From: Candidatus Omnitrophota bacterium | Lineage (GTDB): Bacteria > Omnitrophota > Gorgyraeia > Gygaellales > Profunditerraquicolaceae | Length of the DNA stretch: 64,000 nt | Assembly (NCBI GenBank): GCA_016783715.1 | Contig: JADHWA010000001.1 | Span: 118-64,117, forward strand | Direction: 5' to 3' | In this document: positions 4,943 through 52,232 of the stretch, piece after piece | How positions within the stretch are numbered: position 1 is the stretch's first letter | How the letters are laid out: the number at the start of each line of letters is the position of its first letter | Translations under genes and position numbers: made by a program | The notes under the pieces: generated by a model | Told to the model about the DNA's origin: nothing | What the model saw: the letters and a program-made list of their open reading frames with translations, nothing else | The model's database searches: none

Positions 4943-5120
4943 TTAATGAGCGCATAACTTAGCGAAGCTAAGTTATAGCGTCCGTTATTTTACTTGTATA
5001 TAAGCGTGCGCGAATTAACCCAGCACTTATTTGGCATGTGCTTAGCATTCAACAAATAAGTGCTGGGCAAATTCCCCCGCACCCAAACAAGTAGTAGTAT
5101 ACACTTGACTGGGTGCGGGG
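4943..5120. repeat. type-A three-hairpin intergenic repeat element (fills the prmC stop to murA start spacer)
   Basis: hairpins ATAACTTAGC-GAA-GCTAAGTTAT, CCCAGCACTTATTTG..CAAATAAGTGCTGGG, CCCCGCACCCA..TGGGTGCGGGG; linker GCGAATTAA; termini AATGAG / TCATTT. Confidence 0.7.
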
Positions 5121-5948
5121 TCATTTGACCTTTTGCGCTATAATGATTCTCTCTATATTATTATAATCTCTAATTATCCTATAAACAGAAAAATCTTTCC
5201 TCTTTTTTAAAATACTCTCTACGGGCCTCCTCTGATTCAACCCGATCTCCAGGGCCAGAAACCCACCTGGCTGGAGATGTTTTAAGGAGCCAGCGATTAT
5301 CCTGCGATAAAAGTCTAATCCATCCCTGCCGCCATCTAAGCCAATACGCGGTTCATAACCAATCTCAGACGCCAAATTATCGATCTCTCCAGAGACAATA
5401 TAAGGCGGATTACTGACAATAATGTCGCATGTCGCATGTCGCATGTCGCATGTCGCAAACAAATCAGATTGGATAAACTCTATCCTTTTATCTACATAGT
5501 GCAAAGAGGCGTTATTTTTGGCTACTTCAAGCGCTTTCTCTGAAATATCAGTAGCGGTTATTGCTACCTGTGGTAATAATTTAGCCAGCGATACCGCAAT
5601 ACATCCCGAACCGGTACCTATCTCTAAGATCCTCCTACGATTAGCGATATGCGATAAGCGATTAGCTAACTTTATTATTGCTTCTACTAAAAGTTCTGTT
5701 TCCGGACGCGGGATAACCACTCCGGGATTTACCTTAAATTCAAAGCCCATAAATTCCTGTTTACCTAATATATACTGCAGGGGCTCACCTTTGGCTCTTC
5801 GTTTTAGAACAGAAGAGATCAAGCGCAATTGACTCTTATTAGGGGCCGGAGGTCTGCGGCTATAGAGGTCAATGCGATTGCACTTTAGAACATCGGTAAA
5901 TAATAATTCAGCTTCGTTCACCCAGCCTTTCCTCCTACTTGTACCCAA
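5121..5948 (-). CDS. prmC: release factor glutamine N5-methyltransferase
   Basis: IVSNPPYI motif, AdoMet-binding GTGSG; start uncertain (TTG as called; the N-terminus lies in a tandem repeat). Confidence 0.8.
   Translation of the reverse strand: MGTSRRKGWVNEAELLFTDVLKCNRIDLYSRRPPAPNKSQLRLISSVLKRRAKGEPLQYILGKQEFMGFEFKVNPGVVIPRPETELLVEAIIKLANRLSHIANRRRILEIGTGSGCIAVSLAKLLPQVAITATDISEKALEVAKNNASLHYVDKRIEFIQSDLFATCDMRHATCDIIVSNPPYIVSGEIDNLASEIGYEPRIGLDGGRDGLDFYRRIIAGSLKHLQPGGFLALEIGLNQRRPVESILKKRKDFSVYRIIRDYNNIERIIIAQKVK
5422..5456. repeat. heptamer microsatellite (ATGTCGC)x5 inside prmC coding sequence
   Basis: perfect 5 copies; encodes ATCDMRHATCD just before NPPY. Confidence 0.85.
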
Positions 5949-6043
5949 CCCTTTGGAAAGGCTGGGTCCTCCTACTTGTACCCAACCCTTTAGAAGGGCT
6001 GGGTCCTCCTATTTGTTTCCCAGTCCTTTATGAAGGGCTGGGT
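5931..6043. repeat. tandem repeat, 3 copies of 37-39 bp (CCTCCTACTTGTACCCAACCCTTTGGAAAGGCTGGGT) spanning the prfA stop and prmC start
   Basis: units at 5931-5967, 5968-6004, 6005-6043; the third unit encodes the prfA C-terminus. Confidence 0.8.
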
Positions 6044-7106
6044 CCTCTGCTGCCTTGATCAGAGCCAGAGAGACCTCATCAAGATCACCATCAAGCACTG
6101 CTTCTAATCGATGTATGGTAAAATTAATCCGATGGTCAGTAACCCGGCGGTCCGGAAAATTATAGGTACGGATCTTCTCGCTGCGATCCCCGGTACCGAT
6201 CTGTGAACGCCTCTCCTGGGAGACCTTCTTAGATTCCTCATGTTGTTTGGCATCCAGTAGGCGGGCGCGCAGTATACGCATTGCCCTAACTTTGTTTTTT
6301 CCCTGAGAACGCTCATCCTGACAGGCTACTACCGTACCGGTGGGGATATAGGTAATTCTCACTGCCGAATCAGTCTTTTGCATATGTTGGCCGCCGGGGC
6401 CGCTGGAGCGGTAAGTATCGATCCTCAGATCTTTGGCATCGATCTTTAAGTCTACTTCCTTAGGCTCAACCAGCACCGCTACCGTGGCCGTAGAGGTATG
6501 TATCCTCCCCTGCGCTTCGGTAACCGGAACACGCTGCACCCGGTGGACACCGCTTTCAAATTTAAGCCTCTTATAGGCATTCGGCCCTTTTACGCTAAAA
6601 GATACGTCTTTAAATCCCCCTGACTCATTGGTACTAGCTGACATCAACTCGACCTTCCACCCTTTATTGGCGGCATATTTTGTATACATCCGGTAAAGAT
6701 CAGCGGCAAATAGACCAGCCTCGTTTCCTCCGGTCCCCTGCCTGATCTCAACGATCAGATCCCTGCCCAAATCCTTGTCTTCTCCGGAAAGCATCTTCTT
6801 CAGGCGCTGCTGGAGGTCAACCCTCTTATTATTTAATTCCTCCGTCTCCTTTCGGGCCAGCTCCAGAAATTCTTCATCATGCTTCTCCTCTAAAACCTTT
6901 GCCAGATCGAGGATCTCGGCCGACACCCGCTGATACTCTAGAAACAACGCTACCGGCCCCCTAAGAGAAGCCATCTCCTTTGCGTATTTATTACACTCCT
7001 CCCTGTTTGAAATCACCTCAGGAGAAACTAAGAGCGCTTCCAGTTCCTGATATCTTTTTTTCATTGTTTCCAGCTGCTCGAACATAATAGTAAAACTCCC
7101 TGGCAC
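6009..7106 (-). CDS. prfA: peptide chain release factor 1
   Basis: GGQ motif ([10 protein letters not shown]), PVT tripeptide region, RF1 length. Confidence 0.9.
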
Positions 7107-7133
7107 CTACCTACTATCTACTAACTACTGATT

Positions 7134-10711: not shown

Positions 10712-13242
10712 TTAACAGACTCCATCTCCAGCCAATTCTTACCTTTCTTTACCGTGACCGTTATCGGGACCTTCAACTTCAAAGCAGATTCCATCCGCTC
10801 TCTGATTAATTCTATAGATTCCTTAAGCTCATCCTGCGGCACCTCAAATACCAGCTCATCATGAACCTGAAGCAACATCGCAGTCTTTAATTTCTTCTCC
10901 TGTATTTGATGGTATATATTAACCATCGCTAATTTTATCAAGTCGCTTGCCGAACCCTGTATCGGAGTATTTACCGCCTGGCGTTCGCTAAGCGCTCGGA
11001 TAGCCATATTAGAGCTGTTTATCTCAGGCAGATACCTGCGCCTTCCCAGTATTGTAGTAACAAACCCTTCTTCTCTGGCTCTTGTTATCTGCTCCTCTAT
11101 ATATTCTTTTACTTTCGGATACCTGAGGAAATAGGCGTCGATAAACTGCTGGGCATCTTCGAACGATATATTCAAGTCGCGCGAGAGCCCGTATGCACTC
11201 AAGCCATAGACTATACCGAAGTTAATCCGTTTTGCTACTTCTCGCATCTGATCATCCACATCTGTCTCCTTGATATCGTAAATCAAGGAAGCGGTGATCT
11301 TATGAATGTCTTTGCCGTCTCTGAAGGCTTCAATCAGCCTCTGATCTCCACAGAGATGGGCCAAAATCCTTAGCTCAACCTGAGAATAATCACAGGAGAC
11401 AAGATCCCACCCGGCAGCCGAAACTATAACCGCACGCCTGATCTGACTGCCTAAATCTGTCCTGATAGGAAGATTCTGCAGATTGGGATTGGCAGAACTT
11501 AAGCGGCCGGTTTCTGTGCCGGTCTGCTTAAAAGACGTATGAATCCGGGAAGTCAACTTATCGGCCAATTCCGGAAGCGCATCAATATATGTGCTCTTTA
11601 ATTTCATCAGTTGGCGATACTCCAGCAACATAGCCGGCAGCTTGTGCTTTTTGGCCAGCTTTCTTAAAACCTCCTCATTGGTAGAAGGCCCGGTTTTAGT
11701 CTTTTTGACCACCGGCAGTTTCAATTTTTCAAAGAGGATCTCTCTTAATTGCTTCGGAGAGTTTATATTAAAATCGGTACCGCTTGTACTATAGATCTCC
11801 TTGGTCAATTTTTTTAGTTTTTTCCCTAAATCCTCCGAAAGCCCCTTAAGAACTTTCCGGTCGATCTTTATCCCGTTTATCTCCATCTGGGCCAGCACCT
11901 CTACCAGAGGCATCTCAATATCATAAAAAAGCTTATCTAACGATTTATTATGGAGCTCCTTCTCCAGTTTTTGCTTCAATCTGACTATCGCTGTGATTGA
12001 GGTTGCCGCCTCAACAGGAGCAGCGAATCTGGCCTGGAGATACTCCCAGGATATATCCTCCAGGTCAAAGGCGCCTCCGGAGGGATTTAGTAAATAAGCG
12101 GCGATCATGGTATCAAAATACATGCCCCCTAAATCAACGCCGCAATCTTTCAATTTAATCCTGGTGGTTTTCAAATCGTGGCCGGATTTTTTTATCGAGG
12201 AGTCTGAGAGCACCTTCTTTGTCTGGGCGCCTGGAGAATTTAGCTTAAAAATTTTATCCCCCAGAGAAAAAAACATCTCTTGATTATCGGCCAAATAAAG
12301 GAAAATCTCTTTTTCCTTAATTGCCAGGTCAGCAAAATCTTTATCCTTCAGGGTATCTACCTTGATATCACACCTTTTCTCTTGTACAGGCAAGCTCCTA
12401 AGCAGCGACTTGAACTCAAACTGTTTAAATAATTTAAAGAGTTCATCTAAATCCGGTTCCTCGACCCTGGTCTCTGCAATCCCTATCTTGATCTCAGGCC
12501 TGCTGCCTAACACCGCTAATTCTTTACTTAGGCGCAAAATCTTGATTTCAGCCTTAATGCTTTCTTTTAATTTTCCCTGCTTTAGGGTATCCAGATTCTT
12601 AATCAGGTTCTCCACGCTCCCAAACTCTTTGATCAGCTTAACAGCGGTCTTCTCTCCGATGCCGGAGACCCCCGGAATATTATCGGCATTATCCCCCATC
12701 AGGGCGATAATATCCGGTATCGCCGATGGTTTTATCCCATAACGCTGGATGACCTTATCTTCATCATAAAGCGTACCCTCATCCTTATAGGGGCTGAAGA
12801 CTTCTACATTTTTATTAACTAACTGCAGCATATCTTTATCTGAACTGACGATGGTTGTAGAGATACCCTGATCCCCGGCTTTCTTGGCTAAGGTAGCGAT
12901 GACATCATCTGCCTCAAACCCTTCCTTCTCCAATATGGCGATCCCGTAAGCAGAGATTATCCTCTTAATCCAGGGGATCTGGCTACCCAGCTCATCTGGC
13001 ATCGGTGGCCGCTGAATCTTATACTCCGCGAACTTCTTCTGGCGAAAAGTATCCCGGGAAACATCAAAACAGGCCGCCAGATATTCAGGCTTCTCTTCCT
13101 TTAGCATCTTATCCAATATCTTTACAAAACCGTATATGGCATTGGTTGGCTGCCCGCTGGATGTGCTTAAGTTTTGCAGGCCATAAAACGCCCGATAGCA
13201 AAAGCCTGTAGCGTCTATCAGATACAAACGTTTATTCTTCAT
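10708..13242 (-). CDS. polA: DNA polymerase I
   Basis: 5'-3' exonuclease N-terminus, family A polymerase motifs (DYSQIELR, QVHDELV). Confidence 0.9.
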   Translation of the reverse strand: MKNKRLYLIDATGFCYRAFYGLQNLSTSSGQPTNAIYGFVKILDKMLKEEKPEYLAACFDVSRDTFRQKKFAEYKIQRPPMPDELGSQIPWIKRIISAYGIAILEKEGFEADDVIATLAKKAGDQGISTTIVSSDKDMLQLVNKNVEVFSPYKDEGTLYDEDKVIQRYGIKPSAIPDIIALMGDNADNIPGVSGIGEKTAVKLIKEFGSVENLIKNLDTLKQGKLKESIKAEIKILRLSKELAVLGSRPEIKIGIAETRVEEPDLDELFKLFKQFEFKSLLRSLPVQEKRCDIKVDTLKDKDFADLAIKEKEIFLYLADNQEMFFSLGDKIFKLNSPGAQTKKVLSDSSIKKSGHDLKTTRIKLKDCGVDLGGMYFDTMIAAYLLNPSGGAFDLEDISWEYLQARFAAPVEAATSITAIVRLKQKLEKELHNKSLDKLFYDIEMPLVEVLAQMEINGIKIDRKVLKGLSEDLGKKLKKLTKEIYSTSGTDFNINSPKQLREILFEKLKLPVVKKTKTGPSTNEEVLRKLAKKHKLPAMLLEYRQLMKLKSTYIDALPELADKLTSRIHTSFKQTGTETGRLSSANPNLQNLPIRTDLGSQIRRAVIVSAAGWDLVSCDYSQVELRILAHLCGDQRLIEAFRDGKDIHKITASLIYDIKETDVDDQMREVAKRINFGIVYGLSAYGLSRDLNISFEDAQQFIDAYFLRYPKVKEYIEEQITRAREEGFVTTILGRRRYLPEINSSNMAIRALSERQAVNTPIQGSASDLIKLAMVNIYHQIQEKKLKTAMLLQVHDELVFEVPQDELKESIELIRERMESALKLKVPITVTVKKGKNWLEMESVK

Positions 13243-48720: not shown

Positions 48721-50505
48721 TTACCTCCTGAATATTTTCTTGAATTCCTCTTGGCTGCCTGGGCCGCTGGTGCTGAAAATCTGCTGATTATCGATTAAGA
48801 ATGTAGGCCCGAACATAACCTGTAATTCACTATTAAGCCTGATGTTCTCGCTGAGCAAATCTCTTCCCTCCTGACTCCTGGCACAGTCTCTGACCCGGGA
48901 GACGTCGCATTCACCCGATAGACACTCCTCCCACCAGGAGCTGTTGATATTTTTTGCCCGGCAGATTATATAATCCCAGAAATCCTGCGGACACCAAGTT
49001 TTGACACAGAGGCTGCGCAGATACTCCTCGATCTCACCGGTGCCACCGGCAGAATCGAATTTACCCTCTAGCTCGGTGGCCAGGAAGTGAATCCGGGGAT
49101 CAAAACTCCTGGTTGCTTCTAATATAGACGATGAATACTTATTGTAGAGGCTTATGAATAGGTCAAGGCCCCCGGATATTTTCTTCCTGTTGATATAATA
49201 GGATACGCCCGAGAATTCCGGTTTAAGTATTAGAAACTCATCCCCCTCGACGAACTTCTCTCTTAAGGCCCCAAAATTAGGCTCTTCGACGATCTCTTTC
49301 TCAAAGATAAAGGCCGGCAGAGTCTGGATATCCAGCTCGGCGACTATTTTCCTGGCTTGCCTTTGGGGATAGACAAGCTTAGAAGTAGTTACCCCTGGAA
49401 ATGTCTCTTCAAGATAAGTAATACTCCCGGCTGCATTAAACAACTCCCTTCTCTTGGGTTCAATTACCCAGAGCTTAACCTCCCCGGCAGGAGTAAATTC
49501 ACACTTAGCATCTGAAGTGCCCGGATTACCACAGGAGGCAATACTTCCTTTCTTCTTGCAATCGTTATCCCTGAAACACTGCGGCAGGACAGATTTAATC
49601 TCAGGATCGTCCCTAAACTTCTTGGTCAGTTCTATATCTTCGCTCTTTACATCTGTTATCCGGCCTGCCTCTATCTCCAGGGTAACCTTGCCTAAACTTC
49701 TGGCCTGCCAGGAAGGCTGTAAGATTATGGTGGAACTCTCTTCTGCCGTAAGGTCCTTCTCCATCCTGTTGTATCTGGTTATAAGTAGATCTACCCCCGG
49801 CACCTTCTTGACTAACTCCAGATCTTCACCCGGATCCAGCCGGCTCAAAAGTATGATTACTCCGACCTGATTATCTTTTAGCTGCTTAATCGTATCCCGG
49901 AGCGCTTCTTGGGGGGCGCTGACGCTGACACCGGATACTCTTCTGGCTATCCTGGGAGCTGATATGCCGATAATCCCCACCTTGACACTGCCGACTTGCT
50001 TGATAATAAAAGGATGAATCTTATCAAGCTTAACATTGCATGATACAAGCGGGAATTTATTCTCGTCGGAGAATTTTGTAAAGAACTCTTTCCCGAAGCC
50101 AAACTCATCCTCTCCGATACAGGCAGCGGTATACCCCATCAATTGCATCGCCCTGATATTGGCCAGTGTTCTCTCTTTATCAAGCCGGGAATTCTGCGCG
50201 TATTCATCTTGTGGTCCCCCGGCAAAAAAAGATCCCGAATCAAGTAATAAGGCATCAGGAGCCTGCTTTCTGATCTGCTTTACCAGCGTAGACCTACGGG
50301 CTAAACCCCCGTTTCGCTCGTGCGGGCAGTCACAAGGGTATAGCATCGCGTGAGTGTCGCCGGTATATAAAATTGTAATTTCCTCCGCGAAAGAGAGCGA
50401 AAAGTTCAAAACGCAAAGTGCAAAACTAAAACTTAAAGCTAAAAGCTTTACACTTTTAACTTCACCTTTGCGCTCTGCGCTTTGCGCTTTGCGCTTATTT
50501 ATCAT
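48721..50505 (-). CDS. secreted calcineurin-like metallophosphoesterase / 5'-nucleotidase-family protein with Cys-rich and DsbA-like C-terminal extension
   Basis: signal peptide; GDTHA metallophosphatase motifs; C-terminal GPTFLIDNQ resembles a thioredoxin-fold cis-Pro loop; many Cys. Confidence 0.55.
   Translation of the reverse strand: MINKRKAQSAERKGEVKSVKLLALSFSFALCVLNFSLSFAEEITILYTGDTHAMLYPCDCPHERNGGLARRSTLVKQIRKQAPDALLLDSGSFFAGGPQDEYAQNSRLDKERTLANIRAMQLMGYTAACIGEDEFGFGKEFFTKFSDENKFPLVSCNVKLDKIHPFIIKQVGSVKVGIIGISAPRIARRVSGVSVSAPQEALRDTIKQLKDNQVGVIILLSRLDPGEDLELVKKVPGVDLLITRYNRMEKDLTAEESSTIILQPSWQARSLGKVTLEIEAGRITDVKSEDIELTKKFRDDPEIKSVLPQCFRDNDCKKKGSIASCGNPGTSDAKCEFTPAGEVKLWVIEPKRRELFNAAGSITYLEETFPGVTTSKLVYPQRQARKIVAELDIQTLPAFIFEKEIVEEPNFGALREKFVEGDEFLILKPEFSGVSYYINRKKISGGLDLFISLYNKYSSSILEATRSFDPRIHFLATELEGKFDSAGGTGEIEEYLRSLCVKTWCPQDFWDYIICRAKNINSSWWEECLSGECDVSRVRDCARSQEGRDLLSENIRLNSELQVMFGPTFLIDNQQIFSTSGPGSQEEFKKIFRR
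50467..50494. repeat. heptamer microsatellite (TTTGCGC / TCTGCGC)x4 at codons 5-13 of the nucleotidase-like gene
   Basis: 4 copies, 1 variant; encodes KRKAQSAERK. Confidence 0.7.
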
Positions 50506-52088: not shown

Positions 52089-52117
52089 CCTACACTCCTT
52101 TAATGTTCCTGCAAAAA

Positions 52118-52232
52118 ACTCTAAACCCTAAATCCTAAACCCTAAATAAAATCCTAAATCCAAAACTCAAATTATTAAAAATAAAACTTTGGGTTTGTTT
52201 AGAGTTTAGTGTTTCGAACTTAGGATTTAAAA
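52118..52232. repeat. CCCTAAA-type heptamer repeats plus long imperfect inverted repeat between the serC-like gene and serA
   Basis: AACTCTAAACCCTAAATCCTAAACCCTAAAT.. pairs with ..GTTTAGAGTTTAG..TTAGGATTTAAA. Confidence 0.6.

Follow-up and report, generated by a model that had tools for sequence, protein, structure and literature searches.

Heptanucleotide units repeated in tandem are known from several bacterial groups. Rehm et al. 2015 (PMC4692102) cite a 2007 survey that found an excess of heptameric simple sequence repeats (SSRs) in prokaryotes as well as a report on the short tandemly repeated repetitive (STRR) sequences of Calothrix. To the extent that they are summarized in that source, the cyanobacterial STRRs (Calothrix, Nostoc, Anabaena) consist of tandem 7-nt units in a few to about ten copies, have no known generating mechanism, and comprise a few fixed units scattered over the genome, mainly between genes. 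The TAACTGA repeats of Beggiatoaceae, Cyanobacteria, and Bacteroidetes (MacGregor 2015, PMC4679880) form arrays of 2–6 copies, mostly in operon spacers just upstream of start codons and occasionally at the periphery of coding sequences. Their single conserved unit provides stops in all three frames, and the cases within open reading frames (ORFs) are located at the termini of unrelated hypothetical proteins. The GGGAATC and GGGGA(C/T)T repeats of Xanthomonas and Nostoc are likewise heptameric SSRs and occur preferentially in about four copies (PMC4692102). Here we describe arrays that came to light in a stretch of 64,000 nucleotides (the window) from a Candidatus Omnitrophota metagenome-assembled genome (contig JADHWA010000001.1), in which five perfect heptamers lie within prmC, the predicted gene of the release-factor N5-glutamine methyltransferase. 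The STRR, TAACTGA, and GGGAATC families are mainly intergenic and have a fixed unit. The prmC arrays share with them the tandem arrangement of 7-nt units; like STRRs, they comprise a few to about ten copies and are common in some bacterial lineages. Unlike in STRRs, the unit varies from array to array, and two arrays occupy orthologous positions inside the gene of a conserved enzyme; unlike TAACTGA, the units are lineage-specific, free of stops, and internal to one orthologous gene; and unlike GGGAATC, they contain no G-tracts and are densest, within our sample, in the loops of PrmC. With the GGGAATC-type repeats the present arrays have in common a preference for about four copies and an enrichment between co-directional ORFs (PMC4692102).

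A second group of described systems comprises the contingency loci. SSR-based phase variation is exemplified by the 7-bp repeats in the hmw1A and hmw2A promoters of Haemophilus influenzae (PMC8262952). Phasevarions, which carry repeat tracts in mod methyltransferase genes, resemble the prmC arrays in having a non-triplet unit in the gene of an NPPY methyltransferase, where a change by one unit alters expression. Bacterial genes normally purge microsatellites with a non-triplet unit, phase-variable surface genes being the exception. As set out below, we consider the array in prmC to be probably a coding microsatellite that is maintained by slippage and held by selection on reading frame and loop length.

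On the plus strand, the unit ATGTCGC is repeated five times without a mismatch at 5422–5456. Tandem Repeats Finder (TRF) called the array at 5422–5457 with a period of 7, 5.1 copies, 100% matches, and a score of 72. The 14-mer ATGTCGCATGTCGC, corresponding to two units, occurs at a single locus in the window, where it has four overlapping matches; the mean in 100 dinucleotide-preserving shuffles was 0.02, and none of the shuffles reached four. The array is translated from the minus strand, where it reads (GCGACAT)x5.1 and traverses all three codon phases: the codons GCG ACA TGC GAC ATG CGA CAT GCG ACA TGC GAC AT encode ATCDMRHATCD, followed by IIVSNPPY. In the AlphaFold model (mean pLDDT 74), the tract forms a loop between the strands at residues 147–151 and 165–170, i.e. 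the surface loop between beta3 and beta4 together with the first residues of beta4. We refer to this position as site B.

The host ORF (5121–5921, minus strand) starts with GTG and encodes 266 amino acids. It matched the PrmC equivalog profile TIGR03534 with 268 bits (cut-off 199.1) over profile positions 1–252 of 253 and contains both PrmC motifs, IIVSNPPY, with the catalytic NPPY codons AAT CCG CCT TAT at 5400–5411 (minus strand), and IGTGSG, with the codons for the S-adenosylmethionine-binding GTGSG of motif I at 5604–5618 (minus strand). An exact look-up returned NCBI MBL7069842.1, an identical protein recorded with PF17827 (PrmC_N) that comes from a Candidatus Omnitrophota metagenome-assembled genome. 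The gene prfA (6009–7106, minus strand; identified from the ORF list and a profile match) is located directly upstream on the same strand, an arrangement kept in all related loci, and the order of the operon around prmC is rho, rpmE, prfA, prmC, murA, trpG. The product of prfA, release factor 1 (RF1), is a substrate of PrmC. Judged by profile score, motifs, and gene order, the gene carrying the tract is prmC. Thus, the perfect (ATGTCGC)x5 array that an earlier reading of the sequence alone (the sequence-only reading) had placed in prmC immediately before NPPY is borne out.

The same reading had taken two units as the canonical form and three extra units as an in-frame insertion of MRHATCD. Such a recent insertion of 21 bp into a two-unit sequence has the arithmetic in its favor, as five minus two units amounts to 21 bp and keeps the frame, but it conflicts with the length of orthologous loops. 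The loop across site B was of equal length in 23 aligned orthologues, and the window PrmC aligned without a gap, from SDLF to SNPPY, with HemK of Thermotoga maritima (1NV8/1SG9). Of approximately 119 Omnitrophota PrmCs, 95 share with the window a D-L-F to NPPY spacing of 15 residues, and seven have 22 (+7). The 8-residue spacing expected for two units occurred in none of these proteins, values near 8 being artefacts of the regular expression; with a mode of 15 and none at 8, a two-unit canonical form thus does not exist. In addition, L003, P0019, and P0026 carry a near-identical array of the same length as that of the window at only 55–57% identity. The gap-free alignments and the spacing counts led us to discard the insertion, for which we see next to no probability. 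According to these comparisons, the tract fills a loop of normal length.

Loci containing prmC were gathered from metagenome and genome contigs. No relative of more than 60% identity was obtained by the metagenome-contig search, and the close relatives came from exact protein look-ups. The genome-contig matches listed belonged mostly to other phyla, with few named Omnitrophota genomes, and the loci of other phyla served as a negative control. Arrays were scored as strict at a threshold of at least 17/21 identities at lag p. In 44 Omnitrophota prmC loci, strict arrays were found at site A in 14, at site B in 12, at either site in 20, and at both in six; none of these loci had a strict array elsewhere in prmC. 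Site A lies approximately 48 nt before the GTGSG codons and site B from 47 to 10 nt before NPPY. The period was 8 in two of the site A arrays. Among the matches listed from other phyla, only 1 of 60 prmC loci had a strict array (L124, labelled Elusimicrobia). TRF analysis gave a corresponding picture, with a period-7 density per 10 kb of 8.87 in Omnitrophota prmC versus 1.34 in the flanks of the same loci, and of approximately 0.6 both within and outside prmC in other phyla.

The window itself has an array at both sites. At site A (5638–5666, minus strand), four degenerate heptamers (GCTAATC GCTTATC GCATATC GCTAATC) encode ANRLSHIANR at the end of a helix and in the loop before motif I (ILEIGTGSG). 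TRF called this array with period 7, 4.1 copies, and 81% matches, and 17/21 positions were identical at lag 7.

The enrichment in prmC extended to comparisons with other genes. Approximately 394 kb of Omnitrophota DNA, in which the flanks cover approximately 25 gene families, mostly conserved neighbors of prmC, together with one 64-kb window, contained 28 strict arrays in prmC and 12 elsewhere. Thus, 28 of 40 arrays are in prmC, unlike in a dispersed family that is mainly intergenic. Eleven of the 12 others are located in operon spacers (rho-rpmE, murA-trpG, trpC-trpF) and one at the extreme 5' end of an ORF; no strict array was detected inside any gene other than prmC in this DNA. Three additional 20-kb loci agreed with this picture. 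On the basis of these contigs and the proteins described below, non-triplet arrays recur at these two positions, both surface loops of the protein, and with a shared register in about one in two Omnitrophota prmC genes.

The repeats are also visible in the proteins. Of 213 Omnitrophota PrmCs, 67 had at least three identities at lag 7 at site B and 62 at site A, with a further 18 at lag 8, while lags 4, 5, 6, and 9 gave 0–3 proteins; a repeat signature at either site was present in 115 of the 213. Such a widespread lag-7 periodicity of amino acids could in principle reflect selection for a 7-residue peptide repeat in the loop, the periodicity of the DNA being a by-product. However, the DNA repeats every 7 nt and not every 21, often with 100% perfection, so that the reading frame changes from one unit to the next, which contradicts selection for a peptide repeat. 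As arrays of period 8 occur at the same site in some lineages and the residues of the loop are otherwise unconserved, we regard this explanation as highly improbable.

In the codon view, the site B arrays share one register, with 15 codons between the F of D-L-F and the N of NPPY; the conserved [Y/F/C][D/E/N] with which beta4 begins is in every case encoded by the 3'-most unit. Within an array the units are uniform, while they differ between lineages: the site B unit is GCGACAT in the window, GCGACCT in L003, TACGAAT in L013, TACGAGT in L176, AACTATG in L016 and L032, CCTACAA in L018 and L031, and CTCACTA in the Elusimicrobia-labelled L124. In other genomes, different spacers can have a unit in common. 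The unit TTACGAA/AATTACG is present in two operon spacers of L029 (1627–1710 and 5134–5170) as well as at site B in prmC of L013, and units of the GACTATA type recur in spacers of L011, L019, L020, and L166.

Where array lengths differ, they do so in steps. L019 and L020 have 11.3 and 8.3 copies, respectively, a difference of three units, and the array of L002 is 21 nt (three units) longer than that of the window. Between PETE and GTGSG, a spacing of 25 residues is the commonest, and minor groups have 18 or 32. Array lengths are capped by the loop at approximately 4.3–5.1 units, or at 8 in variants with seven extra residues. As far as can be judged from these lengths, fixed changes of the coding arrays occur only in three-unit steps (21 nt, 7 aa).

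A spacer array behaved differently. The heptamer array TAGTAGN at 7107–7129 (minus strand), which was identified by TRF between the rpmE stop and the ribosome-binding site of prfA, is exactly one 7-nt unit longer in the window than in L165 (93% identity); this pair of sequences indicates single-unit slippage in a spacer.

The effect of length changes on PrmC was simulated for alleles of 3, 4, 6, and 7 units. All gave products of 165–199 amino acids without NPPY, and a slip by one or two units would thus be expected to yield a truncated protein lacking the catalytic motif. In the species of the window, five units were present in six of six retrieved assemblies. Five of these were found by exact match to the five-unit protein, and therefore only L001 is an independent test; L001, which originates from another sample and has 99.4–99.7% nucleotide identity, carries five units and has no indel at either array. 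The sequence-only reading had named orthologues with the same five-unit tract as an observation that speaks against switching, and the six assemblies go some way toward this, L001 being the informative one. The exact window PrmC was also assembled in ERZ24794676, SRR12042682, ERR13325269, and ERR13325277. None of the predicted 3-, 4-, 6-, and 7-unit products, in both strain backgrounds, was present in a collection of 15 billion proteins by exact look-up, which has low power because few contigs of this species exist. The Omnitrophota loci first retrieved included no frameshifted allele, all being in frame; five of them have the variant GTGCG of motif I.

One frameshift allele was identified by a search with the N-terminal half of the protein. 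P0126, a 173-aa protein from GCA_020062405.1 (locus L176), has three units at site B (TTT ACGAGTT ACGAGTT ACGATAT A..), and the sequence from YDIIISNPPY onward is intact in the +1 frame up to the end of the contig. P0179, from the same species, is 100% identical to it over residues 1–159 and has FTSYELRVTSYDIIISNPPY, implying five units. The two differ by a 14-nt, two-unit deletion that truncates PrmC, with the count for P0179 inferred from the protein. The deletion site is approximately 160 nt from the contig end, so that an assembly error is possible. A second N-terminal-half protein search yielded no more frameshift alleles, leaving one clear case among approximately 230 Omnitrophota PrmC proteins, with more than 99% of orthologues in frame. 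The L176 deletion suggests that slippage frameshifts occur, albeit rarely, and truncating slip alleles accordingly seem to arise while being rare in the public assemblies searched. In this respect the sequence-only reading was correct in stating that the gain or loss of one or two units causes a frameshift: the simulated alleles lose NPPY, and L176 versus P0179 provides a natural example of a two-unit deletion.

Two further proteins, P0143 (L177, approximately 1585–1780) and P0145, derive from prmC genes on contigs of 1–1.8 kb in which unrelated sequence, G+C-rich by eye in L177, breaks the gene exactly at site B. These breaks could stem from a chimera formed at the repeat during assembly or from a genuine insertion.

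The frameshift potential of the arrays is what would be required of a contingency locus, i.e. arrays selected as reversible on/off switches of PrmC that alter RF1/RF2 methylation, termination efficiency, and read-through. The tract repeats a 7-nt unit 5.1 times with 100% matches, both arrays lie within the ORF, and neither has a unit length divisible by three. The prmC arrays are more perfect than the spacer arrays, equalizing units in a 7-nt register implies out-of-frame events, and across the phylum a single gene has retained arrays at two positions. The natural out-of-frame allele in L176 relative to P0179, downstream of which the ORF is otherwise intact, is a likeness to contingency loci in a relative. 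However, near-identical strains often differ in copy number at contingency loci, many of which are in the off state; the tracts of these loci are usually much longer, and they affect surface or restriction-modification functions, whereas the copy number of the prmC array is invariant in this species, with more than 99% of orthologues in frame. All six assemblies have five units, L001 has no indel at either array, the predicted products with other unit numbers are absent from the protein collection, and copy-number differences among close strains are confined to the other species, with one 3-unit versus one 5-unit allele. The single clear frameshift allele in approximately 230 PrmCs, close to a contig end, may be an assembly error. 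Five units are few compared with proven hypermutable tracts, and a housekeeping enzyme of translation is an atypical target. Verified contingency loci usually have many more units than five. We therefore consider it unlikely that the arrays were selected as contingency loci, and similarly doubtful that a phylum-wide switch has evolved in which slippage by one or two units reversibly turns PrmC off and selection for switchability keeps the arrays perfect. Of the on/off switching suggested by the sequence-only reading, the potential for frameshifts is real, and one relative carries such an allele; no variation was found among the six assemblies of this species, and an adaptive on/off function stays hypothetical.

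In the explanation that we prefer, the microsatellite is maintained by slippage under selection on frame and loop length. The units would be re-homogenized again and again by slippage during replication, or by transient misalignment, in a 7-nt register. The last unit of site B, which is constrained, may serve as the anchor or master copy. Selection on frame and loop length would purge other changes in length and thereby trap the coding array, while arrays in spacers would drift and decay. A 7-nt register is called for by the pattern of substitution: slippage by 21 nt equalizes only units in the same codon phase, and substitutions that run through a whole array, such as A in the window versus C in L003, therefore need events in the 7-nt register. 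These events might be frameshifted intermediates that later revert, or length-neutral transient misalignments.

Several points weigh against this explanation. Slippage in 21-nt steps is insufficient, and the frameshifted intermediates or length-neutral misalignments that are required in its place are hypothetical. The nearest relatives, L163, L165, and L166 (70–77% amino acid identity), have loops of the same length without a repeat; arrays therefore also decay, being lost or formed anew, and the sequences compared here do not establish that all arrays descend from a common ancestor. The specificity for prmC is unexplained, and with approximately 25 gene families and one window sampled, other genes may carry arrays as well. 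In addition, the median match was 89.5% in prmC arrays versus 80% in spacer arrays, and 10 of 32 arrays were perfect in prmC compared with 0 of 36 elsewhere (p = 2e-4). This higher perfection is not obviously predicted by a purely neutral model of trapped arrays; it could result from selection for perfect repeats.

Heptamer arrays outside prmC raise the question of a role at the level of RNA or DNA, as a protein-binding site or structure, for which the coding role would be incidental. Such arrays are found in the spacers of the same operon in many lineages (rho-rpmE, rpmE-prfA, prmC-murA, trpC-trpF), and the published heptamer families TAACTGA and GGGAATC are thought to be regulatory (PMC4679880, PMC4692102). 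However, unit sequences vary within a genome and between lineages, and therefore no common binding motif exists. The arrays folded no better than shuffles (z-scores −0.96, −1.33, and +1.03), and an Rfam search of the arrays gave no credible family match. A role of the spacer arrays as three-frame stops was rejected, as stop codons in their units are at the level given by base composition (23 of 36 units; shuffling of the units predicts 22.2, and the opposite strand has 19). Accordingly, a cis-acting element appears improbable, even more so than a switch.

The window as a whole was scanned for strict arrays with periods 4–12. Four were obtained, all of period 7, compared with none in Markov-shuffled sequence, and TRF listed eight period-7 rows, whereas 40 shuffles averaged 1.23 and never exceeded 4. 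Two of the four are those in prmC, one extends across the serA stop, and one lies in a spacer; every unit sequence of the window arrays is different from the others. The array across the serA stop, (CGCAAAG)x4.4 at 50464–50499 (minus strand), was detected by TRF and the strict scan and reaches into the 5' end of the next ORF, where it encodes the first codons (KRKAQSAERK) ahead of a signal peptide. The real start codon of this ORF may be downstream of the array. The spacer array, AAACCCT/AAATCCT, is located upstream of serA at 52115–52148 and was found by the same two methods. Its unit AAACCCT (CCCTAAA) equals the plant-type telomere repeat, which is probably a coincidence.

Another repeat occurs at the junction of prfA and prmC. 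By TRF, comparison with relatives, and folding, a 37-nt tandem repeat of 3.1 copies was identified at 5930–6047 (minus strand), extending across the stop of prfA and the start of prmC. Each unit contains a hairpin (CCCAGCCCTTC..GGGTTGGG) and AGGAGGA, and the region has a folding z-score of −4.6. The repeat is absent from L001 (99.5% identical) and from L165, where the prmC ATG overlaps the prfA stop; compared with close relatives, it is inserted sequence. Its presence in the window recodes the C-terminus of RF1 and shifts the prmC start to GTG. L169–L172 probably carry the same allele, since their prfA-prmC gap is identical at 88 nt, the comparison being one of gap length and not of sequence. 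Neither the 37-nt unit nor the 14-mer of the prmC tract has copies elsewhere in the 64 kb; the one-unit-at-many-loci pattern of dispersed families is thus not seen for the tract, whose 14-mer is unique in the window.

On the other side of the gene, the spacer from the prmC stop to the murA start (5012–5130) is occupied by a pair of long, imperfect hairpins whose arms measure 22 and 28 nt. Its sequence is the same in L001, and L002 has a different hairpin. In L174, arrays of GTGTAAT (10786–10826) and ATTACAC (10888–10920), one unit in opposite orientations, flank the prmC stop and the murA spacer; judged from their sequences, they could pair as a long stem. The surrounding gene order is kept in L166, L173, L174, L175, and the window despite PrmC identities of only 55–70%: carbon monoxide dehydrogenase/acetyl-CoA synthase (CODH/ACS), a tetratricopeptide repeat (TPR) protein, polA, glgA, coaE, rho, rpmE, prfA, prmC, murA, trpG, trpD, trpC, trpF, trpB, trpA, and an M16 peptidase.

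A search of the literature for work linking prmC with repeats or phase variation, or Omnitrophota with tandem repeats, returned none. It is unusual for the gene of a housekeeping enzyme to retain two non-triplet microsatellites whose positions are orthologous across an uncultivated phylum. As the units are kept alike within each lineage and lengths change in steps of seven residues, the prmC genes of Omnitrophota offer a natural system for studying slippage and selection on frame and loop length over deep time. For genome analysis, metagenome assemblies of Omnitrophota are likely to break at these arrays or to show spurious frameshifts there. If a switch did operate, it would yield subpopulations with unmethylated RF1/RF2 and altered termination and read-through at stop codons, and mutational control of a release-factor-modifying enzyme, and hence of translation termination, would be possible in these bacteria.

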